IMG/VR virus record: IMGVR_UViG_3300005099_000009
Span: 1 to 61,313 of that record
Source: a virus
Taxonomy: Duplodnaviria > Caudoviricetes
Length of the DNA: 61,313 nt
Direction: 5' to 3' (one strand)
Below are positions 9,746-53,552 of this stretch, piece after piece (the first letter of the stretch is position 1; every line of letters begins with the position of its first letter). The notes below the pieces were generated by a model. It saw nothing but the letters and a program-made list of their open reading frames with translations. It did no database searches and was not told the DNA's origin. A program made the position numbers and the translations under genes.

Positions 9746-10027
9746 TTGGCTTCTAACGCCGAAATCCTGCGCTACCTCCAAGAGGCAATAGAGACGAAGA
9801 TCGAGATCAATACCCGGCACCTGGAGCGGCTGAACGGGGTCTTGGAGAAGCACAGCCGCATCTTGGAGGAGCATGACTCGCGGCTGGGGGAGCATGAGGT
9901 GAAGCTGGCCATGCTGAACCAGGAGCAGAGGCATCACAGCGTGAATTGGGACAGGGTGATAAGCATCTGCGTCGCCATTTTGGAAGGGGTGATCATAGCC
10001 CTGCTCCTGGCTTACTTGAGACTATAG
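9746..10027 (+). CDS. Holin-like protein (coiled coil plus one C-terminal TM)
   Basis: GGAGG SD before TTG; heptads then VISICVAILEGVIIALLLAYL. Confidence 0.5.
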   Translation: MASNAEILRYLQEAIETKIEINTRHLERLNGVLEKHSRILEEHDSRLGEHEVKLAMLNQEQRHHSVNWDRVISICVAILEGVIIALLLAYLRL

Positions 10028-10039
10028 GAGGTGAGCAAG

Positions 10040-11167
10040 ATGGCCGGTGTCTCCTGGACACCGGAAGAGGAGGCCGACTTGAGGGCCACCTTGCCCCCGG
10101 ACGGCTGCCTCACGCAGGCGGCCTACCGGGAGTTCGTGGCCCGCAACCCGGCCCTCAACGCCCGCCGCAGCTATCAGGCCTGGCGGATGAAGGCCAGGGA
10201 GCTCTTGAGCCAGGGCCGGGCCATCGCCCACGCGATGCCCCAATTGAGCTATCCCGATCGGCAGCCTCCGCCCTGGGAGGAGCGGCTGGCGTGGGCGGCG
10301 GAGGCCAAGAAGCAACGGGAGCGGGATGACATCTTCACCTTCTTCGCCACGGCTGAGATCGCCGCCGATTCGCCCGTGGGTGTGCTCTTCACCAGCGATT
10401 GGCAGCTGGGCTACCTCGGCGTGGACTACGAGAGCTGGAGGGCGCACTTGGAGAGGTTCCTCGCCACGCCGAATCTCTATATGCTGCTGAACGGCGACCT
10501 GATACACAACGTGGCCGTGCACCGGACGCTGCGGGCGGCCTTCCAGCAGGTCATGACCCCTGAGCAGCAAATGCTGGCCGTGGCCGACTTGGCGGCGGAG
10601 CTCGTCGAGCGCGGCAAGCTCCTCGCCGTCACCCTCTCGGAGGAGCACGACATGAGGGACGCGCGCCTTACGGGGCATTCCACGCTCATGCAGCTCCTCC
10701 GCGACAAGAAGGTGCCCCTCTTCAACAACCGGGGGTGCCTGGTGCTCAAGGTGGGCGGCTGGCACTACGTCATCTACTGCGTGCACAAGAGCCGATATTA
10801 CTCGTTCCTGAACCAGCTTCATAGCGGGCAGAGGGAGTTCCAGCTGGGCATCCCGGCGAACGTCGTCGTGACTTCGCACACTGACCGGCCCGCTTGGGGG
10901 AAGTATCCCTGGTATCCCGAGCTCCGGCGGCTCTTGGAGTACTTGGGCGAAAGCTTCCCCCTGCCCTTCACGCTGGGGGAGGAGGTCTACCTGGTCCAGA
11001 CCGGGAGCTATGAGGTGGACGCGGAATACGGCGTGAGGCAGTTCGGGCTGCTGCCCAGGCCCAAGCCCATCATCTTGGTCTTCTGGCCCGACCGCTTCAA
11101 GATCGCCGTGGTGGAAAGCTTTGAGGACGCGGAGAGGTATTTGGGGTTGAAATGCGGAGGGGATTGA
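10040..11167 (+). CDS. Calcineurin-like metallophosphoesterase with divergent motifs
   Basis: FTSDWQLG, LNGDLIHN, SEEHD, CVHK, TSHTD align with DxH, GD, GNHE, H, GHTH motifs. Confidence 0.7.
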   Translation: MAGVSWTPEEEADLRATLPPDGCLTQAAYREFVARNPALNARRSYQAWRMKARELLSQGRAIAHAMPQLSYPDRQPPPWEERLAWAAEAKKQRERDDIFTFFATAEIAADSPVGVLFTSDWQLGYLGVDYESWRAHLERFLATPNLYMLLNGDLIHNVAVHRTLRAAFQQVMTPEQQMLAVADLAAELVERGKLLAVTLSEEHDMRDARLTGHSTLMQLLRDKKVPLFNNRGCLVLKVGGWHYVIYCVHKSRYYSFLNQLHSGQREFQLGIPANVVVTSHTDRPAWGKYPWYPELRRLLEYLGESFPLPFTLGEEVYLVQTGSYEVDAEYGVRQFGLLPRPKPIILVFWPDRFKIAVVESFEDAERYLGLKCGGD

Positions 11168-11328
11168 TGCCCAACGACTTGGAAAGCGCCTTGACGAAAA
11201 TCTTAGAGAGGGACCGATGGGGATTGCAATCTGGCCCAATTCGCTGGGAGACGCTCGTGGAGCTGCGCCGCACCTACCGCGACGGCAGGACGAGCTCCGA
11301 GTTCCTTCCCTATAGCTGGCGGGGCTGA
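11167..11328 (+). CDS. Small hypothetical protein (53 aa)
   Basis: GGAGGGG SD, TGATG coupling; MPNDLESALTKILERDRW...; not in ORF track. Confidence 0.45.
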   Translation: MPNDLESALTKILERDRWGLQSGPIRWETLVELRRTYRDGRTSSEFLPYSWRG

Positions 11329-11399
11329 CCCTTGCGGGCCGTCCCGGAGGGCAAGCCGAACGTGGCGCGGGCGAGAATCATTAGATAGGAATGAAAGAA

Positions 11400-11448
11400 G
11401 GCGGGCGAAAGCACAACCGGGAAAAATTTTCCGGTTCTTGGCCCGTCT
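11400..11448. terminator. Hairpin between convergent transcription units
   Basis: AACCGGgAAAA-A-TTTTCCGGTT stem inside GGCGGGC/GCCCGTC. Confidence 0.45.
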
Positions 11449-11451
11449 GAG

Positions 11452-11835
11452 TTATGTCGAGCGGCGCCTGCGCTTGCGCCGCCGCCAGCGGAGGTACTCG
11501 GCGTAGTCGCGGACGGCTTCGAGCTCCGCGTCGTCCATGGTGACGATGAGCTCCATCACCTCGGAGTAGAGCCTGTCCGTCTGCGGGGGCCGCTTGAGGT
11601 AGCCCGCCAGCTCCAGCACCCTGGTGAGCGGGGTGTCGGCCCAATCTGCGATGGCGACCAACGTCGCTAAATCCGGCTCGTGGCGTCGGCGGGCGATGTT
11701 GGAGATGGTGCCGGTCGAGATGCCCATCTCCAAGCAGGCCTCCGTCAGGCTGATTCCCCGCTCCAAGCAGCGCTGCTGGACGAAGACGGCCAAGGGGTGG
11801 GGGTTGTCTATGTAAAATCTGCAGCGTGCGCGCAA
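11452..11835 (-). CDS. XRE-family HTH repressor
   Basis: RGISLTEACLEMGISTGTISNI...EPDLATLVAIAD; AGGAGG SD. Confidence 0.85.
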   Translation of the reverse strand: MRARCRFYIDNPHPLAVFVQQRCLERGISLTEACLEMGISTGTISNIARRRHEPDLATLVAIADWADTPLTRVLELAGYLKRPPQTDRLYSEVMELIVTMDDAELEAVRDYAEYLRWRRRKRRRRST

Positions 11836-11977
11836 GGTAACTTCCTCCTAATGTTAAAATTGCGTGGATTTACAAAACGTGAGCGTAACCAATAGCGCTT
11901 CTGTCACGTTATAATAGTAAGAAACGTTAAACGGAGGTAGGGGAAGTTGAAGCGCCTGCGGAAAGCGGCCCGGCGTC

Positions 11978-12388
11978 TTAGCCTTCGCCAGCTCCGAGCC
12001 CTGGTGGTGTTCTTCGAGTCGCTGGCTGCGTGGCTAACGCCTCGATCAAGCTAGCTGCTACGTCCCGCAAATTCGGCGGCAACTTCTTGAGCGCTGCCTC
12101 TAATCTGTGGAGCAAAAGCTCAAATTCCTCGTCTGCCCCGCGTTGCGGAGCGAGGCCGCATAGGGCCAGCATGTACTCGTAGTCGCCGTCCAGCGCCTCG
12201 GCGAGCTTCTTGAGCGTGGTGGCCTTAGGCAACGGCTGGCGCATCTGCCTGAGCTTGGGCAGGTAGGTGCGGTGCAGCCCCGCCGCTATGCTAGCTTGCG
12301 ACTAACTCATGCCTTTCGCCTTCCTGAGCCTGTCAAGGTACTCGATCAGAGTCTCGCCCGGCTGCGCGGCTATGCCCTTTTTCGCCAT
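11978..12388 (-). pseudogene. XRE-family repressor with in-frame TAG at codon 29
   Basis: AGGAGG SD then ATG at 12388; MAKKG...RKAKGMS*SQASIAAGLHRTYL...PKATTLKKLAEAL; stop at 12302-12304. Confidence 0.8.
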
Positions 12389-37893: not shown

Positions 37894-38515
37894 ACCTAAC
37901 CCTTGGAATGCGAGGCGTTTATCGCGTGACGACCCTCGCTTTCGATCCATTGTTAACGCAATTCAGATGGATGGCGAGCTTTCCTCTATTCCTATCGTCC
38001 GTCCTCTGCCCAATGGACGCTACCAGATGGTGGGAGGTTGGCATCGTACTTTAGCGGCTAAGGAAGCAGGTCTTAAATCTATTCCCTGTATTGTGCGCGA
38101 GATGAGCGAGCAGAGGGCGCGCGAGCTTACATTGCTGCTAAACAAGGCGGAGGGCGATGATGATTGGGAAGCGCTACGCGAAGCTTTACGAGCGCTAGAG
38201 GAAGACTTTAACCTAACGCGGGAAGAAATTAGCGATCTCACCGCTTTTGATCTTAATGAGATTGATGACTTACTTACCTTTAGCTTAGACGACTTAGCGT
38301 CTCTAGCTCAACTTGCCAAGGAAGCGCCCGAACCGGATGATGAAGAGATGCAATGGGTTAGGCGCAGTTTTCGCTTGCCAGCCTCGGCAGCGCGAGTCGT
38401 AGACGAGGCCATTCAGCGAGTGGAGCAACAAGAAGGGGTGCAAGCTTGGCGCGCCTTAGAACTAATCTGCGCTGACTTCTTAGCGGGAGCAGAGCAGGAT
38501 GTCTCGGTGGCCTAA
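37859..38515 (+). CDS. ParB/Srx N-terminal domain protein
   Basis: IEPNPWNAR, PIVR, YQMVGGWHR..AA...G...IPC. Confidence 0.85.
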   Translation: MQIKDIPIELIEPNPWNARRLSRDDPRFRSIVNAIQMDGELSSIPIVRPLPNGRYQMVGGWHRTLAAKEAGLKSIPCIVREMSEQRARELTLLLNKAEGDDDWEALREALRALEEDFNLTREEISDLTAFDLNEIDDLLTFSLDDLASLAQLAKEAPEPDDEEMQWVRRSFRLPASAARVVDEAIQRVEQQEGVQAWRALELICADFLAGAEQDVSVA

Positions 38516-39197
38516 AGCCGTTGTGCTACTTTCGGGAGGCATTGACTCAACGACCTTGGCTACTTATTTACTGTCCCTTGACTTTGAGGTCTATGCTCTT
38601 ACAGTCGCATATCAGCAACGCCACCAGCGAGAAATCGAGGCGGCCCGCACTATTGCGCAGAGCTTAGGCATAGAGCATCGAGTTATCCAAGTCCCTCTAC
38701 AAGGCATAGCACGCAGTGCTCTCTTGGGCGATTCGCCAATTCCTCATACCCAATATAATCAAGAGACGCAGAGGCAAACCGTAGTGCCCAATCGCAATAT
38801 GATTTTGTTAAGTTTAGCTGTTGCCTGGGCGGTTTCTCTTAAGGCAGAAGTTGTGGCTTATGCAGCGCATCGTTCAGACTATGCAGTTTACCCTGATTGC
38901 CGGGATGTGTTCGTGAGGCCCTTGCGCCAAGCGATTCAAGCTGGTAATTACTCTGCTCCTACTCTCCTTGCCCCATTCCTCTATTACACCAAAGCGCAGA
39001 TAGTGGCCCTAGGCTTAAAGTTGGGCGCGCCGTATCATCTTACTTGGTCGTGCTATGAAGGTGACGAGCGTCCTTGCTTGGAGTGCGGGACGTGTCGTGA
39101 GCGTACGGAGGCGTTTGCTCTCAATCAAGTGCCTGACCCTGTGCTCACTCCGGAGGAGTGGCAGCAAGCTTTGCAGATCATTGGTTGGAAGGAATGA
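38499..39197 (+). CDS. queC: 7-cyano-7-deazaguanine (preQ0) synthase
   Basis: SGGIDS, VPNRN, YPDCR, TWSCY..C..C..C. Confidence 0.95.
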   Translation: MSRWPKAVVLLSGGIDSTTLATYLLSLDFEVYALTVAYQQRHQREIEAARTIAQSLGIEHRVIQVPLQGIARSALLGDSPIPHTQYNQETQRQTVVPNRNMILLSLAVAWAVSLKAEVVAYAAHRSDYAVYPDCRDVFVRPLRQAIQAGNYSAPTLLAPFLYYTKAQIVALGLKLGAPYHLTWSCYEGDERPCLECGTCRERTEAFALNQVPDPVLTPEEWQQALQIIGWKE

Positions 39198-41168: not shown

Positions 41169-42798
41169 GTGGCTGGGCGGGGTCCCCCTATCCCGCCACT
41201 CGCAGGAAGTCAAGAGGGCCTTCGAGAGCGGCGCTTGGTGGGCGGGCGAGGACGAGCCGCCTCCGGGCGGCGGGCCGGGCGGCTATCGCTGGGGCTACCG
41301 CCGCTTGGGGGCAGGCTTGCGGGACGTGGCCGAGGTGGACTACCACGAGGCCATCGAGCGCGTGTGGCGCCTGTACCGCACGAACCCCCTGGCCCGGCGG
41401 CTGATCCTCACCCAGCGCGACCAGGTCGTGGACACGGGCATCCGGCCCGTCGCCAGGGACGAGCGCGTGCAGGCCGTCTTGGACGAGTTCTGGGACGACC
41501 CCGTCAACCGGATGGGCGAGTTCGTCTACATGGCCGCCTTGCAGCTCTCCATCTTCGGCACGCAGGTGTACGTGGCCTTTCCCGACTTGGAGTGGAAGGA
41601 CGGCGGCGTGGTGGGCACGGGCCGGGTGAGGCTGGGCTACGTCGACCCGGCGGAGATCGAGGACATCGAGCTCGACCCCGACAACGCCCGCATCCCCGTG
41701 GCCGTCCGCCAGCGCAGGGAGACGGGCGAGACGCGGGTGTACCGCGTGATACACTTGGACGAGCGGCCCGACAGCCCCACGCGCGGCCTGCTCATAGGGG
41801 CCATGCCCGACCTCAGGGAGGACAGCCCCACCTACGGCAAGCTGGTGGACGAGAAGGGCCGGGTGTACGACGGGAGCTGCTTCCTCTTCCGGGTGAACCA
41901 CGTGATGAACGGGAAGTGGGGCTGGCCCGACATCCTGCACTTGGTGGACTGGCTGGAGCAGGCCGACCTCTTCTTCTTCGACATAGCGGAGCGGATTTAC
42001 TGGCTCACGACCTTCGTCTGGGACGTCCTCCTGCAGGGGGCGACCCCGGAGCAGTGCAAGGCGCGGGCCAAGGAGATCGCCACCTACCCGCCGCGCCGAG
42101 CCAGCGTCCAGGTGCACAACGAGAAGGAGGTCTGGACGCCCATCTCGCCTAGCCTCGGCCAGGCGGACATAGAACGCGCCGCGCGGGTGCTGGTCTGGTG
42201 GATCGCGGGGATAGGCTTCGCCGTCCCGGAGACCTGGCTGGGCTGGGGCAAGGGCACGACCTTCGCCTCGGCGAAGGAGCTGGGCGTGGTGACCCGCAAG
42301 GTCTTGGCCAGCCGCCAGAGCGTCATCCGGGAGATGGTGGAGCGGATGTGCCGCTTCCAGATAGACCAGGCTATCATCGCCCGCCGCCTGCCGCCGGACG
42401 TGGACAAGGCGGTTGACGTGCCCATGCCCAGCTTGGACGTCCGCGATTTGGGCGGGGCGGCGGCCAGCCTCCGCACCGTGGCCCAGGCGCTGGCGTTGGC
42501 CGTCTCGGCCAACGTGATGAGCCGGGAGGCGGCCGTCCAAGTTCTGGCCTACGCCGTCAAGGAGTTCGGCGTGGAGCTGGACGCGGAGCAGCTCAGGCCC
42601 GCGCAGGAGCAGTCGCTGGAGCAGATTCGGAAGAATCTTCAGGATTTGGAGCAGTGGGATAAGGTGCCGCTTGGCGAGCCGCTGCCGAAGGGCGAGGCCC
42701 TCGCGGGCTGGAAGGTGACGCCGGAGGACATCGAGCGCGCCAGGCGCGAGTTCGACGAGGTCTTGGAGCTGATGGGCGTTGAGCGGGCAGAGCGTTAG
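41143..42798 (+). CDS. Portal protein
   Basis: 551 aa after TerL; NPLARRLI, GWPDI, T.ASAKE features. Confidence 0.8.
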   Translation: MGWRDRVIEWLGGVPLSRHSQEVKRAFESGAWWAGEDEPPPGGGPGGYRWGYRRLGAGLRDVAEVDYHEAIERVWRLYRTNPLARRLILTQRDQVVDTGIRPVARDERVQAVLDEFWDDPVNRMGEFVYMAALQLSIFGTQVYVAFPDLEWKDGGVVGTGRVRLGYVDPAEIEDIELDPDNARIPVAVRQRRETGETRVYRVIHLDERPDSPTRGLLIGAMPDLREDSPTYGKLVDEKGRVYDGSCFLFRVNHVMNGKWGWPDILHLVDWLEQADLFFFDIAERIYWLTTFVWDVLLQGATPEQCKARAKEIATYPPRRASVQVHNEKEVWTPISPSLGQADIERAARVLVWWIAGIGFAVPETWLGWGKGTTFASAKELGVVTRKVLASRQSVIREMVERMCRFQIDQAIIARRLPPDVDKAVDVPMPSLDVRDLGGAAASLRTVAQALALAVSANVMSREAAVQVLAYAVKEFGVELDAEQLRPAQEQSLEQIRKNLQDLEQWDKVPLGEPLPKGEALAGWKVTPEDIERARREFDEVLELMGVERAER

Positions 42799-43378
42799 GG
42801 AGCAGCAGGCGCCTCTGCGCACGGCGGAGCAAAGGCGGCAGTTTGTTGCCCTGCGCCAGCAGCTTTTCCGGCGCGACGCGTCCAACTTGGCGCAGCGGCT
42901 CGTGGAGGGCCACATCTCGCTGGCCGACTGGCAGCGCGAGATGAAGCTGCTCATCAAGGACCTCCACGTGACCTGCGCCGTGGCGGCCAAGGGCGGCGAC
43001 TGGCGCGCTATGACGCCTCGTGACTGGGGCAGGGTGGGCGCGGAGTGCAGGAAGCAGTACAAGTTCCTGGCGCGCTTCGCGCAGGATATCTTCAAGCGCG
43101 CGCAAGAGGGCAAGCCGCTTACCTCGGCCATAGCCGCCCGCGCGAGGCTCTACGCTGGGGCGGCGAGGGCGACCTTCAGCCGCATCGAGCAGCTGGTGGA
43201 GAAGGCCCTGGGCCGGACAGAGGTGCGCTGGGTGACCGACCCGCTCGTGGAGAGCTGCCCCGACTGCTTGGAGCTGGAGGCCAGAGGCTGGATGCCCATC
43301 GAGGAGCTCACGCAGTTCCCCGGCGACGGAAGCACGCAGTGCGACGGGAACTGCCATTGCCACTTGGAGTATCGTTAG
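42779..43378 (+). CDS. MuF/SPP1 gp7-like head morphogenesis protein
   Basis: After portal; W....ESCPDC...PGDG.T.C.GNC.C. Confidence 0.75.
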   Translation: MSGQSVREQQAPLRTAEQRRQFVALRQQLFRRDASNLAQRLVEGHISLADWQREMKLLIKDLHVTCAVAAKGGDWRAMTPRDWGRVGAECRKQYKFLARFAQDIFKRAQEGKPLTSAIAARARLYAGAARATFSRIEQLVEKALGRTEVRWVTDPLVESCPDCLELEARGWMPIEELTQFPGDGSTQCDGNCHCHLEYR

Positions 43379-43379
43379 A

Positions 43380-44117
43380 ATGCTTTGGAAACTGGCGGCT
43401 GAGGCGATCGCCCAAGAGATGAAGCTTTCGGAAATCACCCTGCAAGCGCTCAGGGCCCTGGGCGAGGGCAAGCGGGCCCGGCAGGAGATTGGCTCGCTTC
43501 ACCGCCGCTGCCATCAGCTTTGGGGCCTATTGAAGCGGGGCGCGCAAGTCAACAAGGAGGACGTCGTCAACGCCCACGCCATCTTGGTGCGAAGGATGAA
43601 GGAGCTGGGGCTTAATCATAATATGGTAGATGACTTAGATAGAATCAGCAAGCGCTTCGAGGCCATTTCCTTGCCCGACTTGGACGGCTTGCCGGAGCGC
43701 ATCCTGGTGACCGAGGACTTCGTCTCCATCGTGGGCAGCGTGGCTCAGGGCGGGCAGGGCCACGACTTGGACGTGCTCATCCGGGCCGTGTTGGACGGAC
43801 GGGATTTCCGCATCCAGGCGGAGAATGTGCACCTGCCCTTGCGCAAGGCGCTCGACCCAGAAAAGCGCGGCTACCTGCACTTTATTGCGAATCCAAGCGG
43901 TCCGCACGCAGATTGTATACCATTATACGACTTAATGCTTGTTCGGAAGTCGCAAATTAAAGTGAGGCGCGTAGGCGAGGCAGACGGCGAGTATAAGGCA
44001 GACAGCGAGTATAAGGTAGACAGCGAAGACGAAGCTAGGGTCAGCGACGAGGAGCTGGTTCGCCGCTGGGCCGAGCTTGCCTTCTCGCCCGGGCGGCACT
44101 CCGAGCAGAAGCAGTAG
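43380..44117 (+). CDS. His-rich helical domain plus Pol-beta-superfamily nucleotidyltransferase
   Basis: FVSIVGSVA...HDLDVLI (hGS...DxD); N-terminal H..CH...H...H. Confidence 0.6.
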   Translation: MLWKLAAEAIAQEMKLSEITLQALRALGEGKRARQEIGSLHRRCHQLWGLLKRGAQVNKEDVVNAHAILVRRMKELGLNHNMVDDLDRISKRFEAISLPDLDGLPERILVTEDFVSIVGSVAQGGQGHDLDVLIRAVLDGRDFRIQAENVHLPLRKALDPEKRGYLHFIANPSGPHADCIPLYDLMLVRKSQIKVRRVGEADGEYKADSEYKVDSEDEARVSDEELVRRWAELAFSPGRHSEQKQ

Positions 44118-44374
44118 CGAGGAGGAGGGTCGCGGTACTGGCTGACGTACCAGCGCCAGTTGCCGAGAATCTCCAGTGCGGCTTCGCGGCGGGTGATCAG
44201 GCCCTTGCGCACGGCAACCTCAAGCTTGATCTCGCCGCGCCGCTTGGCCCAGTGACACGTCCAGCAGAGTAGGTGCGTGCCGAACTGATTGGAGTACTCA
44301 TTGCCTAGCCACTTGCGGGGCACATAGTGGTCTACGGTCAAATGGCTGGTGGCGCCGCAGTAATCGCACTGCAT
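43871..44374 (-). CDS. Antisense HNH-like Zn-binding protein
   Basis: CDYCG...LTVDHYVP...LCWTCH..K; AAAGGAG SD; 3' part overlaps 43380-44117. Confidence 0.75.
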   Translation of the reverse strand: MQCDYCGATSHLTVDHYVPRKWLGNEYSNQFGTHLLCWTCHWAKRRGEIKLEVAVRKGLITRREAALEILGNWRWYVSQYRDPPPRYCFCSECRPGEKASSAQRRTSSSSLTLASSSLSTLYSLSALYSPSASPTRLTLICDFRTSIKSYNGIQSACGPLGFAIKCR

Positions 44375-44410
44375 AATCCGGTCTCCTTTCGGCGATTAAT
44401 TTCGTCAAAT

Positions 44411-44439
44411 ATTATACCAAAAAATGTCAAGTTTGTCAA
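44411..44439 (-). promoter_or_regulatory. Consensus sigma70 promoter driving the antisense HNH gene
   Basis: TTGACA-17 bp-TATAAT with TGn extension. Confidence 0.88.
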
Positions 44440-46685
44440 GGATAGAGCAGGAGATTAGGCGCAGGGGCATCGAGCTCAAGCTCGACTTGGGCTGCGGCGA
44501 CCGCAAGCCCCCTGGCTACATCGGCATTGACAAGAAACCGGGGCCGGGAGTGGACATCGTTTGGGACTTGGAGCGGGGCATCCCGTTCCCCGACAACAAG
44601 TTCGACGTGGTCAGGGCGTGGCACTTCTTGGAGCACATGCCCGATCCCATCTTCATCATGGACGAGGCCTGGCGCGTGCTCAAGCCGAGCGGCGTCTTGG
44701 AGCTGGAGGTGCCCGCCACGCCGGGCGACGGGGCCTTCGCCAACCCTACCCACAAGTCGTACTGGAACAGGCTCTCGTTTCAGTTTTACAGCGACGACAC
44801 GTTGCGCCAGAGCTGCGGCGTCCGAGCCAAGTTCAGCATCGAGGAGCTGGAGGAGCGGGACGACCCGGAGTGGAGGTGCCGGTACGTCCGCGCCAGGCTT
44901 AGGGCGGTCAAACCCCGCGCCAACGAGGCCATCAGGCCGTTCAGCCGCTTTATCCCACCCAAGCCCGCCATGGCATTTTACACCGAGTTTTTCTCGGCGG
45001 AGGAGGCGTGGGAGAAGTGGGCCAAGGACAGGATCGCCGACGGCATCCAAGTCGAGCCGAAGTTCAACGGCTTCCGCGCCATCGTCGAGAAGGCGGGCAG
45101 CCGGGCCCGCATGTGGATCGAGGACTCGCCCGGCAAGAACATCTTGCCGAAGTTCCCCGATGTCGAGAAGGCCGTCAAGTCCATCGCCGACGACTTCATT
45201 TTGGACTGCGACTTGGGCATTGAGGAGAATGGTCACCGCCTGCCCCGCATAAGGCTGATGACGCTGACCGCCGACAAGCCGGAGCTGGCCCCCGGCCAGC
45301 GCGTGGTGGTGACGGCGTTTGACCTGCCTTACTGGAACGGGCCGCTGGACGAGACGCCGCTGTCCGAACGGCGGGCCAAGCTGGAAAGCTTTTTCGGTAA
45401 GCGCCTGAAGCCATCACCTAACTTCCGGTTGTCGCCCAAGCGCGTCGCGCGCGACAAGGCGAGCTTCTTGGCTGCCAGCAAATGGGCCGCGTCGCAGGAG
45501 ATGAGCGAGGGCATGGTCGCCAAGACGCTGTCGTCGCCGTACGCGCTTAGCGGCGCCACGTCGGAGTGGGCGAAGGTCAAGCACGTGGTCGAGGTCAAGG
45601 CGATCGTCCTCGGCAAGCAGGCCAACAAGAACGGCACGTGGAGCTACCGCTGCGGCCTTCTGTTGGGCGATGCTGATTACGCCAATACTGTCGAGGTAGA
45701 CGGCCAGAAATACGTGGACTTGGGCAAGACGTTTGCTACCAAGATAAAGGCCGACGTGGGCGACATCGTGACGGTCGAGGTGGAGGAGATTATCGAGAAG
45801 GAGAACTCGCTCCACTGGCTGGGCCCCAAGGTGGTGGACGTGGACAAGGCCCGCAGGCAACCGTACTTCGCCAAGCAGGTGATTGACTTGGCGAAGCGGG
45901 GCCGCGTTTACCAGCGGGCAGCCGAGGCCCTGGGCGACGAGGGCGAAACGCGGGGCGAGCGGGCGGCGAAGTGGTGGGCAGAGCACTGGCACGAGGTCTT
46001 CCCGGCGTCGGGGCGCGGGCGCTTCGTCTACCAGCACCACTACAGGCACTTACCCAAGAAGGAGCAGAAGCTGGGCGAGGACGAGCTGCTGGGGCTCCCG
46101 CGCGGCGTCAGCGTCCACGGCGACCTGCGCTTGGAGGGCGACGACGCGCTTTGGGGCGTATCCGTCTTCCTCGGCAAGGCGGAGGATGTGCGCAAGGCGG
46201 GCGGCTGCCGCCTGTGCAGCTTGCCTCCCGACGACAATTTGCAAATCGCGTTCAAGCTGCCGCAGCCCAAGGGCTGGCTCGACGTCGGGAAGCGCAAGCC
46301 GATGATGTGGGACCCCGGCGACGCCGTCGAGGGCAAGTTGGACAAGTTCTTCGCCGTGGACTGGGGCACCTACGACATGGGCGTAGCGCGGGAGCACATG
46401 ATCGAGATATTCCTGCGCGGCAACAAGCTGAAAGGCCGCTACCTGTTGGAGTACGCCCCCATAGGCGGCAGGCGCGTCTGGATCATAGACAGGCCGCGCG
46501 ACCAGACGCCCTACGCCGAGAGCCACAAATTGGAGGACGTGGTGCGCGAGCTCAGACGTAAGGGACAAAAGTGGCTCATTTGGGCCAAGCCGGGCGCGAG
46601 GCCGCGCAAGATTGACGTGACCAAGTTTAAGGCAGAGAGCGTGCGCGAGGTGATTTGGCGGTGGGCCAGCCAAACCTTAAGTTGA
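44424..46685 (+). CDS. SAM methyltransferase - ATP-dependent ligase - LigD-type phosphoesterase fusion
   Basis: LDLGCG/HFLEH; ligase motifs EPKFNGFR, ILDCD, AFDL, EGMVAK, WAKVK plus OB-like region; FVYQHH..HGDLRLE..DWGTY..LRG.KLKGRY. Confidence 0.8.
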   Translation: MSSLSRIEQEIRRRGIELKLDLGCGDRKPPGYIGIDKKPGPGVDIVWDLERGIPFPDNKFDVVRAWHFLEHMPDPIFIMDEAWRVLKPSGVLELEVPATPGDGAFANPTHKSYWNRLSFQFYSDDTLRQSCGVRAKFSIEELEERDDPEWRCRYVRARLRAVKPRANEAIRPFSRFIPPKPAMAFYTEFFSAEEAWEKWAKDRIADGIQVEPKFNGFRAIVEKAGSRARMWIEDSPGKNILPKFPDVEKAVKSIADDFILDCDLGIEENGHRLPRIRLMTLTADKPELAPGQRVVVTAFDLPYWNGPLDETPLSERRAKLESFFGKRLKPSPNFRLSPKRVARDKASFLAASKWAASQEMSEGMVAKTLSSPYALSGATSEWAKVKHVVEVKAIVLGKQANKNGTWSYRCGLLLGDADYANTVEVDGQKYVDLGKTFATKIKADVGDIVTVEVEEIIEKENSLHWLGPKVVDVDKARRQPYFAKQVIDLAKRGRVYQRAAEALGDEGETRGERAAKWWAEHWHEVFPASGRGRFVYQHHYRHLPKKEQKLGEDELLGLPRGVSVHGDLRLEGDDALWGVSVFLGKAEDVRKAGGCRLCSLPPDDNLQIAFKLPQPKGWLDVGKRKPMMWDPGDAVEGKLDKFFAVDWGTYDMGVAREHMIEIFLRGNKLKGRYLLEYAPIGGRRVWIIDRPRDQTPYAESHKLEDVVRELRRKGQKWLIWAKPGARPRKIDVTKFKAESVREVIWRWASQTLS

Positions 46686-46984
46686 GCGATCTTTGGCCTG
46701 AGGAAATTCGCGTTGAGTTAAGTAGGGAGCAGGCGATCGTGATCCGTTCCGACGGACGGGTGAAGCTACCCGAAGGCGTTAGCCCGGAGACGGCGGCGTC
46801 GCTCTTCTGGGAAGCTCTGGCCCGGCAGTTCGGCGGCGCCTACCGCCAATGGTGGCGTTACAAGCCGCTTCTGGACAAGCTCGACGAGGCGGGCTTCGGC
46901 CTGTTCTTGGTGCAGGTGCACGGCAAGCGGCCCGTGGGCGTGACGCCCAAGCTTAAAATCGAGAGGTTGGGAATCTACCGTTAG
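46655..46984 (+). CDS. Hypothetical protein
   Basis: GAGGTG SD. Confidence 0.5.
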   Translation: MAVGQPNLKLSDLWPEEIRVELSREQAIVIRSDGRVKLPEGVSPETAASLFWEALARQFGGAYRQWWRYKPLLDKLDEAGFGLFLVQVHGKRPVGVTPKLKIERLGIYR

Positions 46985-47025
46985 CTCAATTCAGCTAGCA
47001 AATCTTTAGGCCGGGCCCGCCGGAA

Positions 47026-47093
47026 GGAAGGCCGACGGGAAGGCATATCAGGCGAGAGCTGGTTCGCCGTGACGTGCTTTCCCGTCGGCCTTT
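47026..47093 (+). promoter_or_regulatory. Long hairpin in capsid-gene leader
   Basis: GAAGGCCGACGGGAAGGCA / TGCTTTCCCGTCGGCCTTT with inner GGCGA/TCGCC. Confidence 0.6.
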
Positions 47094-47124
47094 CTGCTAG
47101 TACGCCGAAAAGGAGGTGAGAAGC

Positions 47125-49527
47125 GTGGAGGAGAAAGAGCAGCAGAGGGGCAACGCGCTCCTCAACGCCGCCAAGCGGGCGCTCAAGTTGATGGCCGACG
47201 GCCTCGCCGCGCTGGAGGAGGACGCCGACAAGGCCAAGGGCCTCTTCGAGAAGGCGGGCGACGTGCTGGCCGCGGCCTTGGGCTACCCCTCGCCCGAGGC
47301 CCAAGAGGAGATGGCCGAGGCGCTGCGGAAGGCGCTCCAGGGCGTGATGGACGCGCTCAACCGCAAGGACTACGCCAAGGCCAAGGACCTCTTGGAGAAG
47401 CTGTTGGGGCAGTACTACGGCTACTCGTACGGCTATCCCTATGCCAAGCCGAAGGAGGGCGAGGAGGCCGAGGGCGGCGAGAGTGAGCCCGGCAAGGTGA
47501 CCGAGACCGTGCGGGCCTTCGAGGCCATGCGCAAGGAGGGTAAGGTCTGGGAGGTCACCATCATCCGGGCGGGGCTCTCGCTCAACAACAACTACTACCC
47601 GCCCGAGGTGCTGCAGGAGGCCGCGCCGCTTTTCGAGGGGGTCAAGGTCTTCGACAGCCACCTGAACGACGAGGAGTGGCGCGCCCGCCGACAGCGCAAG
47701 GTCAAGGAGGAGTACCTGGGCTGGATTGACCAGGTGCGCTTCGACGAGGCGGCCCAGGCGCTCAGGGGCCTGTTCCACGTGGTTGACCCAATCCTGCGGG
47801 AGAAGATGAAGAGCGTCTGGGAAGCCGGTCGGCGGGACGAGTTCGGCTTCTCCATTGACGCGGGCGTGGACGCCGAGCCGCGTCTGGTGGAGAACCAGCG
47901 CGTCAACTTCATCAAGAAGATTTTGGCCGTCAACAGCGTGGACGTCGTCTTCGACCCCGCGGCTGGCGGCAGGATGGAGCGCATGGTAGAGAACAAGGCA
48001 AAGGAGGTGAAGGAGATGACCAAGGATGAGCTTCTGGAGGCGCTCAAGGAGCTCTCGGACGAGGAGCGGAAAGAGCTTCTGGAGGGCTTGACGCCCGCCG
48101 AGGAGGAGGCCGAGGCCGGGGAGGCCGAGCCGCAGGCGGAGGAGGCGGAGGCCGAGGCCCAAGCCGAGGCGGAGACCCAAGAGGAGGCCGGGGAGGCCGA
48201 GGCGGAAGAGGAGCAGCCCGTGACGGAGGAGCTGGAGCTGCGCCTTTACCGGCTGGAGCTCAAGGAGGAGCTGGCCGAGAGCGGCTTGCCCAAGGCGGCC
48301 CGCGACTTCCTCTGGGAGCAGTTCAGCGGCAGGCCCTGGCCCATGGAGGAGGTGCGCAAGGCCATCGAGGGCCAGCGGCAGGTGCTGTCGAGCGTGACCC
48401 AGGCGGGCCAGGTGAGGGGCATGGGCGGCCTGCGGATCACGGCCAGGCCGGTCATCGAGCTCGACGGCTTCCAGCTCGCCCTGGAGCGGATGCTGGGCGT
48501 GCTGGACGAGGACCAGAGGGGCAAGGCGCCCAAGATCTACAGCCTGCGGGAGTGGTACGTGGCCCTCACCGGCGACGACCAGTTCCTGGGCGTGGTCGCT
48601 CCTGAGCGCGTGACCGAGGCCAACGTGACGACGAGCTCCGTCACCAGCATCGTCAAGAACGTGCTGAACAAGCGCATCCTCAAGCAGTGGGAGACGCTGG
48701 AGAGCAAGCGCTGGTGGGAGCCCATCGTGACCCACTACGACGAGGACACCATCAACGACGTCACGGTCTATCAGACTTACGGCATCGGCGCGCTCGACAC
48801 CGTGAACGAGGGGGCGGCCTATACCGAGGTGAGCTGGGGCGATTACGAGGAGACGGCGAGCTTTTCGAAGAAGGGCAACTACATCGGCATCACGCTGGAG
48901 ACCTTCATGAGGGATAACCTCAACGCCCTGCGGCGCATTCCCGACGCCCTGACCCGCGCCTTCTTGTACACCGTGAGCGACCTGGTGAGCACGGTGTTTA
49001 CCTCGAATAGCGGGGAGGGCGTGACGCTGGGGACCACGAGCCGCCACCTGTGCAACAGCACGGACGGCAACCTCGGCTCCAGCGCGTTGAGCTACGCCGC
49101 CTTCGACGCCGCGCAGACCGCCCTGGCGAAGCTGACCGAGGCCGGCAGCGGCAGGCGGCTGGGCATCTACGCCAAGTACCTGTTGGTGCCCATTGACCTG
49201 CGGTCCACGGCCTACCAGATCAGGGACAGCGAACGCGATCCGGACAACGCCGAGAATGGCGTAAACGTTTGGCGCGGCCAGTTCGAGGTCATCGTCGTCC
49301 CGCAGTGGACGGACACCAACAACTGGTACCTGATCGTTGACCCGAAAGACATGCCCATCATCGGCCTGCACTGGTACCGCGGCCAAAGGACGCCTCAGCT
49401 CTTCCAGGCCGAGAACGAGACCACCGGGGCGCTCTTTACAAATGACGAAATAAGGTACAAGGTACGCTTCTGGGTGGCTCGCTCGGTGGCGGACTACCGG
49501 GGCGTCTACGGCAGCGTGGTGAGCTAA
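47125..49527 (+). CDS. Prohead protease - scaffold - major capsid polyprotein (Mu gpT-like capsid)
   Basis: Protease-like DSH, GFSI, VDVV.DPAAGG; E/A-rich scaffold; KYLLVP.DL and W..T.NWYL capsid motifs; AAGGAGG SD before GTG. Confidence 0.88.
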   Translation: MEEKEQQRGNALLNAAKRALKLMADGLAALEEDADKAKGLFEKAGDVLAAALGYPSPEAQEEMAEALRKALQGVMDALNRKDYAKAKDLLEKLLGQYYGYSYGYPYAKPKEGEEAEGGESEPGKVTETVRAFEAMRKEGKVWEVTIIRAGLSLNNNYYPPEVLQEAAPLFEGVKVFDSHLNDEEWRARRQRKVKEEYLGWIDQVRFDEAAQALRGLFHVVDPILREKMKSVWEAGRRDEFGFSIDAGVDAEPRLVENQRVNFIKKILAVNSVDVVFDPAAGGRMERMVENKAKEVKEMTKDELLEALKELSDEERKELLEGLTPAEEEAEAGEAEPQAEEAEAEAQAEAETQEEAGEAEAEEEQPVTEELELRLYRLELKEELAESGLPKAARDFLWEQFSGRPWPMEEVRKAIEGQRQVLSSVTQAGQVRGMGGLRITARPVIELDGFQLALERMLGVLDEDQRGKAPKIYSLREWYVALTGDDQFLGVVAPERVTEANVTTSSVTSIVKNVLNKRILKQWETLESKRWWEPIVTHYDEDTINDVTVYQTYGIGALDTVNEGAAYTEVSWGDYEETASFSKKGNYIGITLETFMRDNLNALRRIPDALTRAFLYTVSDLVSTVFTSNSGEGVTLGTTSRHLCNSTDGNLGSSALSYAAFDAAQTALAKLTEAGSGRRLGIYAKYLLVPIDLRSTAYQIRDSERDPDNAENGVNVWRGQFEVIVVPQWTDTNNWYLIVDPKDMPIIGLHWYRGQRTPQLFQAENETTGALFTNDEIRYKVRFWVARSVADYRGVYGSVVS

Positions 49528-49537
49528 GAAGACTGAC

Positions 49538-49587
49538 GGCGGAAGGGCTTTGAAGCCTGCCTGATAGGTTTCCGCCTTTCCCTCTTT
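49538..49587 (+). terminator. Putative terminator after capsid gene
   Basis: GGCGGAA/TTCCGCC stem followed by pyrimidine tract. Confidence 0.45.
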
Positions 49588-49611
49588 AAATGATTGAAGG
49601 GAGGTTGCAAT

Positions 49612-50262
49612 ATGGGCACGACTAGGTGGAAGAGCAAGCTCAAGTTCAACGGCAGCGCCTGGTGTCCCGACGACACCTACCTTTACTTCGGCGACGACAA
49701 CGACGTCTCGGTTACTTGGGACGGGACGAACCTCATCGTGGCCGCCGCCGCGGACGACACCCTCATCGAGATCGGCGACGCAGCGGCCACTCAAAAGTCG
49801 TTCGACGTGAAGATTTACGGCGACGGGGCCAACGGCGCCGACTACCTGCATTGGGATGCCTCGGCCAACGAGCTCAAGCTGGTAGGCGACGCGAACATCG
49901 TTCGGGAGGAGTCGGCGAGCCAGGCCGTGTTCCAGAGCCGGGCCACGGTGAGCTACACCGATACGTCGGCCAAGACGCTGTTCACCATCCCGGCGGGGGC
50001 CGACATCATCGGGATAATCGTTGATGTCACCACGGCCTTCAACGACAGCGGCACCGACCTCTTGGACATCGGCACCAGCTCGGACGGCGACTACTTCAAG
50101 AACGACTTGGACGTGAGCTCGGTCGGGCAGACCATGACCGGTTGGAGCCACTTGGGGGACGTGGGCTCTAGCGACATCACGGTGACGGCGACCTATACAG
50201 GCCAGAACGGCGACGCCAGCGCGGGCCAAGCGACCGTCATCTTCCTGTGGACGGTGAGCTAG
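49612..50262 (+). CDS. Putative head decoration/structural protein
   Basis: GGGAGG SD; D/G/T-rich; follows capsid. Confidence 0.6.
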   Translation: MGTTRWKSKLKFNGSAWCPDDTYLYFGDDNDVSVTWDGTNLIVAAAADDTLIEIGDAAATQKSFDVKIYGDGANGADYLHWDASANELKLVGDANIVREESASQAVFQSRATVSYTDTSAKTLFTIPAGADIIGIIVDVTTAFNDSGTDLLDIGTSSDGDYFKNDLDVSSVGQTMTGWSHLGDVGSSDITVTATYTGQNGDASAGQATVIFLWTVS

Positions 50263-50263
50263 C

Positions 50264-50485
50264 ATGGCTGACTTGGAGCGCAGGCTGGCCGAGGTGCGAG
50301 CCGCGCTTCTCCGGGCGCGGGCCAAGCTCCAGCGCTTGGAGGAGCTGCGCGACCAGGCCGAGTACGAGGTGGGCTACTTGGAGGGCCAAGTAGCGCTTCT
50401 GGAAGAACTGACTCAAGAGGAGGAAAGCGATGCAGGAGAAGGCAGTGATCTACACTTTCCACGCGCCGGGGACGATGAGCGCTGA
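50264..50485 (+). CDS. Small coiled-coil protein
   Basis: Heptad pattern; tiling. Confidence 0.5.
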   Translation: MADLERRLAEVRAALLRARAKLQRLEELRDQAEYEVGYLEGQVALLEELTQEEESDAGEGSDLHFPRAGDDER

Positions 50486-52329: not shown

Positions 52330-52385
52330 TCTGTGCGGAGATTGTTACTTAATTGGCAACTTTCTGCAACGAAAGTAGGAGCGAG

Positions 52386-53552
52386 ATGTCCTTAAGGCTG
52401 CTCTTCATGGCGAATTCGCCGTGGTGCCCCACGGGCTACGGCGTGCAGGGCAAGCACATCGTGCGGGGCTTCCGCAAGCTGGGGCACGAGGTGGCCTACT
52501 TCAGCTTCTACGGCCTCCAGGGGGCGAAGCTGGAGGTCAACGGCCTCACGATGTATCCCTTGGCCTACTCCCAGTGGGGCGACGACGTCGTGCGGGCCCA
52601 CATGGACGACTTCCGGGCCGACGCGCTCATCACCCTGCTCGACATCTGGGTGCTGCCGGAGCGGTTCTTCGAGCAGGCCCGGCCGCTCTGCCCCTGGTTC
52701 CCCGTAGACCAGTATCCTGCCCCGCCGCTTATAGTGCGGAACGCCAAGCGCTGCTACCGGCCCATCGTCTACAGCCGCTTTGCCCGGAGGGCCATGGCCG
52801 AGCAGGGCGTGGAGTGCGCCTACATCCCGCACGGCGTGGACACGAAGGTCTTTAGCCCCGGCGACAAGCTGGAGGCCCGCAAGAGATTGGGCCTGCCGGA
52901 GGACGCCTTCGTCATCGCCATGGTGGCGGCCAACAAGGGCTACCCCAGCCGGAAGGCCTTGCCGGAGGCGCTGCTCGCCTTCCGGCGCTTCCGCGAGAGG
53001 CACAAGGACGCGGTGATTTACCTCCACACCCTGGCGGGCGACCAGATGGGCGGCGTGGACTTGGTGGCCGTCGCCGAAAGTCTAGGGCTCCCGCCCAGCG
53101 CGGTGCGCTTCGTCGACCAGTACCGCTACACGTGCGGCCTGCCCGCGAGCTACGTGGCGGACGTGTACCGGGCGGCCAACTTGCTCCACGCGGCCAGCTA
53201 CGGCGAGGGCTTCGGCCTACCCCTAATCGAGGCTCAGGCTTGCGGGACGCGGGTGGTGACGGCCGCTTGGAGCTCCATGCCGGAGCTCACCTTCGACGGG
53301 ATAGCCACCGAGCCCGCCCAGCGCTTCTGGACGCCGCTCAACTCGTGGGCGGCCGTGCCCTCGGTGGACGCCATCGTGGAGGCGTGGGAGGCGATCTACC
53401 GGGGCGGGCTGGGCGACCCTTGGGCGCCCAGCGAGAGGGCCGTGCGGGCGGCCCAAGCTTATGACTGGGACAGGGTGATGGACGAGTACTGGCGTCCCTT
53501 CTTGGACGACTTGGAAAAGAGGCTGATCGCCGATGGACTTAAGCGGAGCTGA
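52386..53552 (+). CDS. GT-B (GT4-like) glycosyltransferase
   Basis: PTGYG.Q, IPHGVD, RK, GEGFGLPLIEA (EX7E). Confidence 0.92.
   Translation: MSLRLLFMANSPWCPTGYGVQGKHIVRGFRKLGHEVAYFSFYGLQGAKLEVNGLTMYPLAYSQWGDDVVRAHMDDFRADALITLLDIWVLPERFFEQARPLCPWFPVDQYPAPPLIVRNAKRCYRPIVYSRFARRAMAEQGVECAYIPHGVDTKVFSPGDKLEARKRLGLPEDAFVIAMVAANKGYPSRKALPEALLAFRRFRERHKDAVIYLHTLAGDQMGGVDLVAVAESLGLPPSAVRFVDQYRYTCGLPASYVADVYRAANLLHAASYGEGFGLPLIEAQACGTRVVTAAWSSMPELTFDGIATEPAQRFWTPLNSWAAVPSVDAIVEAWEAIYRGGLGDPWAPSERAVRAAQAYDWDRVMDEYWRPFLDDLEKRLIADGLKRS

Follow-up and report, generated by a model that had tools for sequence, protein, structure and literature searches.

What does a predicted DNA ligase, fused to a methyltransferase and an end-processing domain, do among the head genes of a phage? 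This question is raised by the IMG/VR viral contig IMGVR_UViG_3300005099_000009 (61,313 nt; estimated to be 84% complete), the whole of which was analyzed here and is referred to as the window. Two open reading frames (ORFs), named ORF245 and ORF753 for their lengths in amino acids (aa), lie between a MuF-like head protein gene and a gene for a protease-capsid fusion (Table 1). Their start positions are both divisible by 3, and the ORFs therefore share a reading frame. A sequence-only reading of the window had recognized a nucleotidyltransferase (NTase) motif in ORF245 and an S-adenosylmethionine (SAM) methyltransferase, a ligase, and a LigD-type 3'-phosphoesterase (PE) in ORF753, and had proposed that the two gene products cooperate in a virion-delivered system acting on injected DNA. 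The ORFs, their common frame, and the motifs that it quoted were all found where it had placed them (G119-S120...D129-L-D131 in ORF245; KFNG at residues 213 to 216, DCD at 261 to 263, FVYQHH at 534 to 539, HGDLRLE at 565 to 571, and DWGTY at 646 to 650 in ORF753). Judged by their sequences, ORF245 and ORF753 are real genes and no chance frames.

Comparison with relatives shows that the two ORFs are halves of a single gene that is conserved in phage head modules. A database search with ORF753 returned 122 relatives at E values of ≤1e-3, many of them at <1e-100 and most of them 800 to 1300 aa long. By BLASTP, 85 of 120 ORF753 homologs matched both window ORFs, and the ORF245 part was always N-terminal. 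In the homolog P0005, residues 1 to 202 correspond to ORF245 aa 14 to 214 and residues 199 to 922 to ORF753 aa 18 to 735, and the two parts abut likewise in P0013, P0014, P0006, and P0026. A single-sequence scan of viral contigs returned no relatives, whereas an alignment-based scan of IMG/VR identified 80 related loci. The NTase part was present in 74 of these loci (5 of the 6 loci without it are on contigs truncated at the 5' end), and in 67 of the 74 it lay with the PE part within one uninterrupted frame; the ligase part was found in 77 loci, sharing the PE frame in 72. The split of the window gene falls in the interdomain linker between NTase and methyltransferase, with no residues missing relative to the fused relatives, and the window copy has kept all residues that are invariant in the family in its NTase, ligase, and PE parts. 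The sequence-only reading is upheld in its domain assignments, but it treated as two cooperating genes what is a single gene interrupted by an HNH cassette; the shared frame is the trace of this insertion. A few relatives (L010, L012, L024, L027, L060, and L077) are split at other linkers. The split in L010, on a 75.9-kb IMG/VR contig, is a wider and different one, with an NTase-methyltransferase part (positions 122 to 1858 of the locus) ~8 kb upstream of a ligase-PE-protease ORF (9848 to 12115).

The gap between the two halves (44118 to 44423; 306 nt) contains five further in-frame stops and an HNH endonuclease gene, which, like the protease of most relatives described below, had escaped the sequence-only reading. 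The HNH ORF, present as a single copy in the window, exceeds the cut-off of PF01844 (4e-5; 24.1 bits versus 21.4) and matches eight PHROG HNH families (best E value, 3e-6). It is preceded by a sigma-70 promoter that agrees with the consensus at 12 of 12 positions (TTGACA at 44439 to 44434, a spacer of 17 nt, and TG-TATAAT ending at 44411) and that is the sole promoter-like site in 4.7 kb (0.5 expected in shuffled sequences), and by a ribosome-binding site (AAAGGAGA; 44389 to 44382) 7 nt ahead of its ATG (44374). The GC content is 30% at 44400 to 44449, versus ~63% around it. An HNH match was found in none of the 80 related loci, and tblastn gave no match to the HNH protein in phages. The last ~85 codons of the HNH ORF, which run antisense through the tail of ORF245 and have a serine-rich end, are probably read-through. 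Comparison with the fused loci shows what we interpret as a free-standing HNH cassette of roughly 330 to 360 bp, inserted on the opposite strand in the NTase-methyltransferase linker. The -35 box of its promoter overlaps codons 4 to 6 of ORF753, and the homology of ORF753 to the fused relatives starts at about aa 1 to 20; the start codon therefore appears to belong to the cassette, which would have supplied the ATG and ~5 codons. A self-splicing intron was rejected as the cause of the split, since an Rfam scan of 43300 to 47200 detected no intron family or other RNA apart from miRNA-like hairpin noise.

A comparable arrangement is found in Aeromonas phage Aeh1, in which nrdA is split by mobE, a free-standing homing endonuclease gene. 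In both phages, a small endonuclease gene inside a coding region leaves two ORFs, and in Aeh1-type cases the halves can still give a working protein. The window differs in that the endonuclease is an HNH enzyme whose gene lies on the other strand under a consensus promoter of its own. Among the 65 upstream neighbor ORFs of related loci (mostly portal or MuF genes), LAGLIDADG_3 was matched in 2 and Intein_splicing in 1, and mobile endonucleases therefore seem to be recurrent in such head modules.

The N-terminal half, ORF245, is composed of a helical module (~aa 14 to 95), a minimal Pol-beta-type NTase core (~aa 105 to 190), and an acidic linker tail. ORF245 itself has no match in Pfam, PHROGs, NCBIfam, or PDB by sequence search, and a PDB search with the profile of its family was equally devoid of meaningful matches. 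In a 50-sequence alignment, G119, S120, D129, and D131 are present in all 50 sequences and D184 is present in 45. The homolog P0031 exceeds the NTP_transf_2 cut-off within the region aligned to ORF245 (28.8 bits versus 21), and at E values of ≤0.05, 4 of 50 family members matched NTP_transf_2 and one matched DNA_pol_B_palm; feature-based matches to NTP_transf_2 clusters (0.88) are a lead only. The invariant GS..DxD motif supports the prediction that the core is a Pol-beta-type NTase. For the helical module, matches to PF03013 (Pyr_excise, a pyrimidine-dimer DNA glycosylase) at E values of ≤0.05 were obtained in 14 of 50 members, all below threshold. On rescanning, 8 of 10 members scored 14.7 to 21.2 bits (cut-off, 23), with six of the matches spanning most of the 81-position profile and two its C-terminal part only. 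The window ORF245 has no PF03013 match, and the likeness may serve as a lead, not as evidence of membership.

In ORF753, the methyltransferase and ligase domains that had been read from the sequence both exceed Pfam cut-offs, the former for Methyltransf_23 (2.8e-10; 40.6 bits versus 27) and Methyltransf_11 (2.1e-9; 38.3 bits versus 21.2) and the latter for DNA_ligase_A_M (PF01068; aa 204 to 386; 1.8e-16; 60.9 bits versus 26.2). PDB matches of the ligase are archaeal DNA ligases (3gde, 2.4e-8; 2cfm, 1e-7), with the alignment extending through the OB domain to aa 471. Its best NCBIfam match is TIGR02779, the ligase domain of the nonhomologous end-joining (NHEJ) protein LigD (7.4e-19), at 68.1 bits versus an equivalog cut-off of 227.75. 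Across 20 sequences, K213, R218, D300, and G363 are conserved in 20, D261, E362, K367, and K384 in 19, and K386 in 18; as in ATP-dependent DNA ligases, conservation extends to the lysine of motif I and to motifs IIIa, IV, and V.

The C-terminal domain was assigned from a model and a profile. An AlphaFold model of aa 501 to 753 (pLDDT, 90.5; pTM, 0.88) gave seven top Foldseek matches in the PDB, all of which are LigD PE structures (3p43, 3n9b chains A and B, 3p4h, 3n9d, 5dmp, and 2lj6; E, 1.1e-6 to 1e-4; probability, 1.00). The next match was at an E value of 0.014, and capping-enzyme and tunnel-metalloenzyme folds appeared only at 0.26 to 0.6. A 68-sequence profile of the domain, run against the whole PDB, matched only five LigD PE chains of distinct sequence (5dmp, 7.8e-4; 3p43, 1.8e-3; 3p4h; 3n9b; and 2lj6), and in BFVD there was one significant match to the fold, in an 827-aa protein. 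The window ORF753 has no PF13298 match and scores 14.7 bits for TIGR02777 (cut-off, 144; E, 0.019); P0058, with 59% identity in the PE domain, passes PF13298 (36.6 bits versus 31.1). These results support a LigD PE fold for the modeled domain, as the sequence-only reading had it. H539, R541, H565, D567, R569, K611, P615, W618, and E661 are invariant in all 68 sequences. H539, H565, D567, and R569 align with the QxH...HxDxR core, which, from work of the Shuman laboratory, comprises the metal-binding His, His, and Asp and a neighboring Arg, and HxDxRLE falls onto the corresponding motif of 5dmp, 3p43, and 3p4h. About 20 additional residues separate the two metal-binding His residues.

A side observation concerns P0105, a metagenomic protein of 814 aa in which a metallo-beta-lactamase domain is followed by two tandem PE domains. 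The first of these (aa 261 to 486) belongs to the phage clade, and the second (aa 509 to 612; 57 bits for PF13298) is more canonical, with Tyr at the conserved Arg of HxDxR.

When the PE profile was run against 1.84 billion representative sequences, 945 matches were obtained at E values of ≤1e-3, 445 at ≤1e-10, and 217 at ≤1e-30, mostly in proteins of 500 to 2000 aa. A search of 185,579 species genomes yielded just five loci, none outside metagenome-assembled genomes (one each from Chloroflexota, Dehalococcoides, Dehalococcoidales, Desulfobacteraceae, and Leptospira). The family is sizeable and known only from metagenomes. To describe its architectures, we collected 62 complete ORFs of at least 700 aa, removed 7 near-duplicates, and scanned 43 of the remaining 55 with Pfam. 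The ligase (DNA_ligase_A_M) was detected in 42 of these 43 full-length members and the XkdF-type protease Peptidase_S78_2 (PF14550) in 37, followed by Methyltransf_11 (22), UDG (13), metallo-beta-lactamase (4), D12 Dam (3), NTP_transf_2 (2), Peptidase_S78 (2), and Acb1 (1). Not all family members have the methyltransferase (36 of 80 loci do), and in 3 of the 43 full-length members D12 Dam takes its place. The Acb1 match (PF23474; 2.6e-22), an anti-CBASS phosphodiesterase within the polyprotein, is a predicted cargo for direct counterdefense. In the relatives, the protease is the last domain of the protein. A tail of at least 100 aa follows the PE in 68 of the 78 loci with a complete 3' end, and a tail of no more than 15 aa follows it in the other 10, as in the window, where the protein terminates at the point from which relatives run on into the XkdF protease.

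The genomic position of the gene is also conserved. A neighbor was defined as the longest same-strand ORF of at least 100 aa whose start is no farther than 1.5 kb downstream or whose end is no farther than 1.5 kb upstream. The 65 upstream neighbors included matches to Portal_Mu (27), Phage_portal (17), the P23-45 portal (17, overlapping with Portal_Mu), and Phage_Mu_F (12), and the 74 downstream neighbors included matches to Phage_capsid (15), Phage_cap_E (15), and Phage_capsid_4 (1), the remainder being unrecognized. Locus L029 has the layout of the window, with a portal gene, a fused NTase-ligase-PE gene lacking the protease, and then an 810-aa capsid ORF. The comparison shows conservation of the head-module position between portal/MuF and the major capsid gene, in agreement with the linkage claimed from the window, where both flanking genes were recovered with PHROG or Pfam profiles (Table 1).

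The reading that we favor, and hold to be fairly probable, is that the window encodes a split polyvalent head-module enzyme of a type that is packaged with the prohead protease and that heals and seals the incoming genome. In order, its predicted domains are the helical module, the minimal Pol-beta-type NTase, the class I methyltransferase, the LigD-like ATP-dependent ligase (adenylyltransferase plus OB), and the divergent LigD-type PE. XkdF-family peptidases are read as head-processing peptidases in PMC7824862. Packaging is inferred from the protease fusion and from the head-module position: prohead proteases assemble inside procapsids, and an enzyme array attached to their N terminus would therefore be encapsidated. 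The C-terminal XkdF prohead protease of 37 of the 43 relatives is the best argument for virion delivery. Together with this protease, the array would be built into the procapsid, cut free by proteolysis, and then ejected with the DNA. After entry, the PE would clear 3' ends of blocking groups, nucleotides would be added by the NTase, and the ligase would close nicks or join cohesive ends, while the methyltransferase, or in relatives the UDG, Dam, metallo-beta-lactamase, or Acb1 domain, would give protection against host defenses. In the window phage, the protease is on the capsid gene, and the two enzyme halves would therefore either need recruitment in trans or function as free enzymes in the cell.

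Several observations weigh against this reading, and the first group concerns the chemistry of the enzymes. In the canonical PE, the DHPxxY segment provides the catalytic His84 and Tyr88, and the His and Tyr of this segment are essential in Pseudomonas LigD. With hhalign (probability, 91%), the QPKGW segment of the window was aligned to QPLAW in the second PE domain of P0105, and with phmmer QPLAW was aligned to DHPLDY of 3n9b, a chain of sequence and not structural alignments. Along this chain, the canonical His is replaced by Gln614 (Gln in 48, Glu in 6, Gly in 6, Met in 4, and Ile in 4 of the 68 sequences) and the canonical Tyr by Trp618 (Trp in 68/68). The domain therefore represents a divergent clade of the PE superfamily, its chemistry may differ from the canonical one, and K611, H658 (67/68), and E661 are candidate catalytic residues. 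Motif I of the ligase is KxNG (Asn in 17/20), and its motif III acid is variable (Asp in 9, Asn in 7, and Glu in 2 of 20). The AlphaFold model of ORF245 (pLDDT, 82.7) was matched only weakly by Foldseek, most closely to the minimal NTase MntA (E, 0.046 to 0.18; best probability, 0.75), and minimal NTases often modify proteins instead of extending DNA. The methyltransferase, in which no DPPY/NPPY motif was seen on reading the sequence, is not recognizable as a DNA methylase, and its closest relatives outside the family sit in glycosyltransferase-rich proteins (P0116, P0117, and P0119).

The second group concerns delivery, expression, and the record of the family. PF14550 is absent from the window, the window copy has no known capsid-targeting signal, and no Shine-Dalgarno sequence is visible upstream of ORF753. 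A search of GenBank phages (50,697 records) gave no DNA match, and a search of GenBank phage proteins gave only a 24%-identical ligase of the archaeal virus ANMV-1 and scattered methyltransferases. This ligase (KP703175.1, positions 3200 to 5800), annotated as an 866-aa 'ATP-dependent DNA ligase', aligns to ORF753 aa 207 to 675, into the PE region, and its gene adjoins one for a MutT-like hydrolase.

Part of the same evidence would suit enzymes that are expressed late and never packaged, mending nicks, gaps, uracils, and blocked ends in concatemers before packaging, with the link to the protease a mere late-operon fusion. The locus belongs to a late head/packaging operon adjoining TerS, TerL, and portal genes, the ligase requires ATP, which is present in the cytoplasm, the protease tail is lacking in the window copy and in 10 of 78 relatives, and natural splits occur at other linkers. 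We nevertheless regard this explanation as rather unlikely, because a prohead protease, an enzyme at work inside the procapsid, is part of the same polypeptide chain in 37 of the 43 full-length members, because Acb1 and Dam would be most sensible as cargo at entry, and because the phage has replication and recombination genes (Rad52, RecU, and a PD-(D/E)XK nuclease) elsewhere.

A substrate of RNA would call for a different account, either heal-seal-methylate repair of the Pnkp/Hen1 or T4 Pnkp/Rnl kind, directed against the damage of host anticodon nucleases, or a capping-like pathway, which the sequence-only reading had raised as a speculative alternative. A 3'-phosphoesterase, a covalent nucleotidyltransferase, and a class I methyltransferase resemble RNA repair and capping sets; the methyltransferase lacks a DNA-methylase motif; and among the 43 relatives there was one match to RNA_ligase (6.4e-5) and one weak match to mRNA_cap_enzyme (1.4e-4). 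The window protein, however, has no match to mRNA_cap_enzyme (PF01331), DNA ligase families were matched in 42 of the 43 members, an OB domain is present, and the best NCBIfam match of the ligase is an NHEJ ligase domain. Moreover, no kinase or triphosphatase domain was found in the Pfam scan of the window ORFs, no Hen1 structure was among the PDB matches of the methyltransferase at E values of ≤1, the methyltransferase is dispensable and in some members replaced by a DNA adenine methylase, and the DNA-specific UDG is inserted in 13 members. The capping alternative is thus not borne out, and an RNA-acting module as a whole seems very improbable.

That HNH insertion and loss of the protease domain have left a decaying, inactivated relic would accord with the in-frame stops, with the lack of a Shine-Dalgarno sequence and of a protease tail, and with the deviation of the window at two near-invariant positions of the helical module (Arg at position 72, where 48/50 have Glu, and Leu at position 76, where 47/50 have Arg), but we give this explanation equally little credence, given 245 plus 753 codons free of internal stops in 63% GC DNA, no loss of any invariant catalytic residue from the NTase, ligase, or PE part, a cut exactly in the interdomain linker at no cost in residues, and L029, which shows the protease-less form to be a regular architecture.

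Virion-delivered proteins are the sole tools of a phage before its own genes are expressed, and the known ones modify or shield DNA or block defenses. If packaged enzymes for ligation, 3'-end healing, and nucleotide addition do exist, they would embody another principle, in which the incoming genome is actively repaired, with a bearing on how phages survive restriction, nicking defenses, and long extracellular exposure. More broadly, and only tentatively, we propose that many uncultivated tailed phages carry a complete in-capsid, protease-anchored DNA damage kit (a glycosylase-like module and/or UDG, PE, NTase, ligase, and sometimes a methylase) that would repair damage accumulated in the particle or inflicted by host nucleases before phage gene expression. 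Enzymes for base excision and end joining would in this way be brought in with the injected genome. Fusion to a prohead protease would be a natural route for loading large enzymes into capsids and is of interest for cargo delivery. The family also offers a divergent PE clade in which the canonical catalytic His is missing and a clear-cut example of a gene divided by an HNH cassette.

In the literature, we found no description of an array in which ligase, PE, and NTase domains are joined to a prohead protease, although one could appear among the supplementary architecture tables of PMC5512222. The sequence-only reading had drawn a parallel with bacterial NHEJ LigD, and this parallel holds in part. 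As in LigD, an ATP-dependent ligase is fused to a LigD-fold 3'-phosphoesterase and to a predicted nucleotide-adding domain. In contrast to LigD, which has an archaeo-eukaryotic primase-type polymerase, the predicted nucleotide-adding domain of the phage is a minimal Pol-beta-type NTase, and no primase-polymerase family was among the Pfam matches of ORF245 or ORF753. The phage PE further differs in the ~20-residue insert and in the Gln and Trp at the canonical His and Tyr, and the phage version is encoded in a head module and usually ends in a prohead protease. The phage system is also without Ku, as had been noted earlier: PF02735 is absent from the 61-kb record (84% complete), whereas a Bacillus subtilis positive control was matched.

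Phage P1 provides a precedent for delivery. In its Dar system, a large DNA-modifying enzyme (the DarB methyltransferase-helicase) enters heads during morphogenesis, is injected, and protects the incoming DNA. Incorporation of a DNA-modifying enzyme into heads, known for Dar, would be the common feature; there is no sequence relation, Dar is without ligase, PE, and NTase, and P1 uses separate head-incorporation proteins, not a protease fusion. The mycobacteriophages Omega and Corndog encode their own Ku, in contrast to the present phage, which carries ligase and PE itself and has no Ku. Host LigD-type end joining circularizes the cos ends of Omega and Corndog after injection, according to PMC12848934 (citing Pitcher 2006), and such chemistry is therefore useful at entry.

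The closest general framework is that of the polyvalent proteins of phages and conjugative elements, for which entry into the host together with the DNA has been predicted (Iyer et al. 2017, PMC5512222). Like them, the present family combines several catalytic domains in a phage polypeptide, with variable cargo and MuF/portal linkage; its catalytic domains are unrelated to each other, and the content varies among members. Instead of an N-terminal MuF, the anchor here is a C-terminal prohead protease. The main text of that paper contains no XkdF, LigD, or UDG, its ligases are RNA ligases only, and its phosphoesterases are only 2H-type or pyrophosphate-clearing domains of polymerases or NTases. 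Our verdict is that the locus is a variant of the polyvalent, putatively virion-delivered phage proteins, built from LigD-like parts.

Table 1. Positions of the split gene, its predicted domains, and adjacent features in the window
Feature	Position(s)	Strand	Basis or remark
TerS, TerL, and portal genes	39158; 39630; 41143		Upstream of ORF245; head/packaging operon
Small MuF-like head protein with C-terminal Cys/His cluster	42779-43378	+	phrog_24776, 2.2e-30; Pfam VG15, 0.041, below cut-off
ORF245, 5' half of split gene, 245 aa	43380-44117	+	Aligns to N termini of ORF753-type homologs
Helical N-terminal module, Pyr_excise-like below threshold	43419-43664	+	PF03013 in family members
Inserted HNH cassette (left border approximate)	44080-44439	-	Promoter, ribosome-binding site, HNH ORF
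HNH endonuclease ORF, 167 aa as open frame	44374->43871	-	HNH domain, aa 3-44
ORF753, 3' half of split gene, 753 aa	44424-46685	+	Ligase, methyltransferase, and PE domains
Class I SAM methyltransferase domain, aa 18-165	44475-44918	+	Methyltransf_23/11, above cut-offs
ATP-dependent ligase: adenylyltransferase, aa 200-388, plus OB to ~aa 475	45021-45848	+	PF01068
LigD-type 3'-phosphoesterase-fold beta-barrel, aa 530-700	46011-46523	+	Model and profile
Conserved C-terminal alpha/beta extension after PE barrel	46524-46682	+	Model elements H197-212, E217-231, H239-251
ORF109, no assigned function	46655-46984	+	Overlaps ORF753 end by 31 nt, other frame
Protease-scaffold-major capsid fusion, 803 aa	47116-49527	+	Phage_capsid_4, 1.7e-30; phrog_29592, 9e-79

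The stop of the MuF-like ORF lies 1 nt ahead of the start of ORF245. On the other side, the 803-aa capsid fusion also matches phrog_4523, 'major head and protease protein' (1.8e-42), and, over aa 129 to 368, phrog_15531, 'head maturation protease'. Peptidase_S78 (PF04586) was not detected in the window, and the protease part of the fusion therefore rests on the PHROG names only. Its true start is likely the GTG at 47125, after AAGGAGG. ORF109 gave nothing above noise in Pfam, nothing in PHROG or NCBIfam, and no match to the 120 homologs; its interpretation as a frameshifted XkdF remnant was rejected because of this dissimilarity and the absence of PF14550 from the window.

Between ORF109 and the capsid gene, just ahead of the AAGGAGG, there is an inverted repeat with perfectly matched 12-bp arms (GGCCGACGGGAA ... 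TTCCCGTCGGCC) and a loop of 36 nt at 47031 to 47090, which may be a regulatory or terminator hairpin; its Rfam score is only miRNA-like noise. Long open frames also run antisense to the head genes, among them 41188 to 43131 (minus strand; 647 aa) and 46981 to 50325 (minus strand; 1114 aa), and their Arg/Ala/Gly-rich, low-complexity translations are taken to be GC-rich shadow ORFs, not genes.

Elsewhere, the phage carries genes of the 7-deazaguanine (queuosine-precursor) pathway, encoding GTP cyclohydrolase I, QueC (38499 to 39197), a PTPS/QueD-like protein, and a radical-SAM protein, the other ORFs of the pathway lying between 1 and 39.7 kb. The presence of such a pathway points to modified guanines in the phage DNA. 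Besides the recombination genes named above, it encodes ParB, FtsK/SpoIIIE, and a pentapeptide-repeat protein. Downstream of the capsid gene, the structural genes are interspersed with one for a glycosyltransferase (52353 to 53552; phrog_2170, 1.6e-37).

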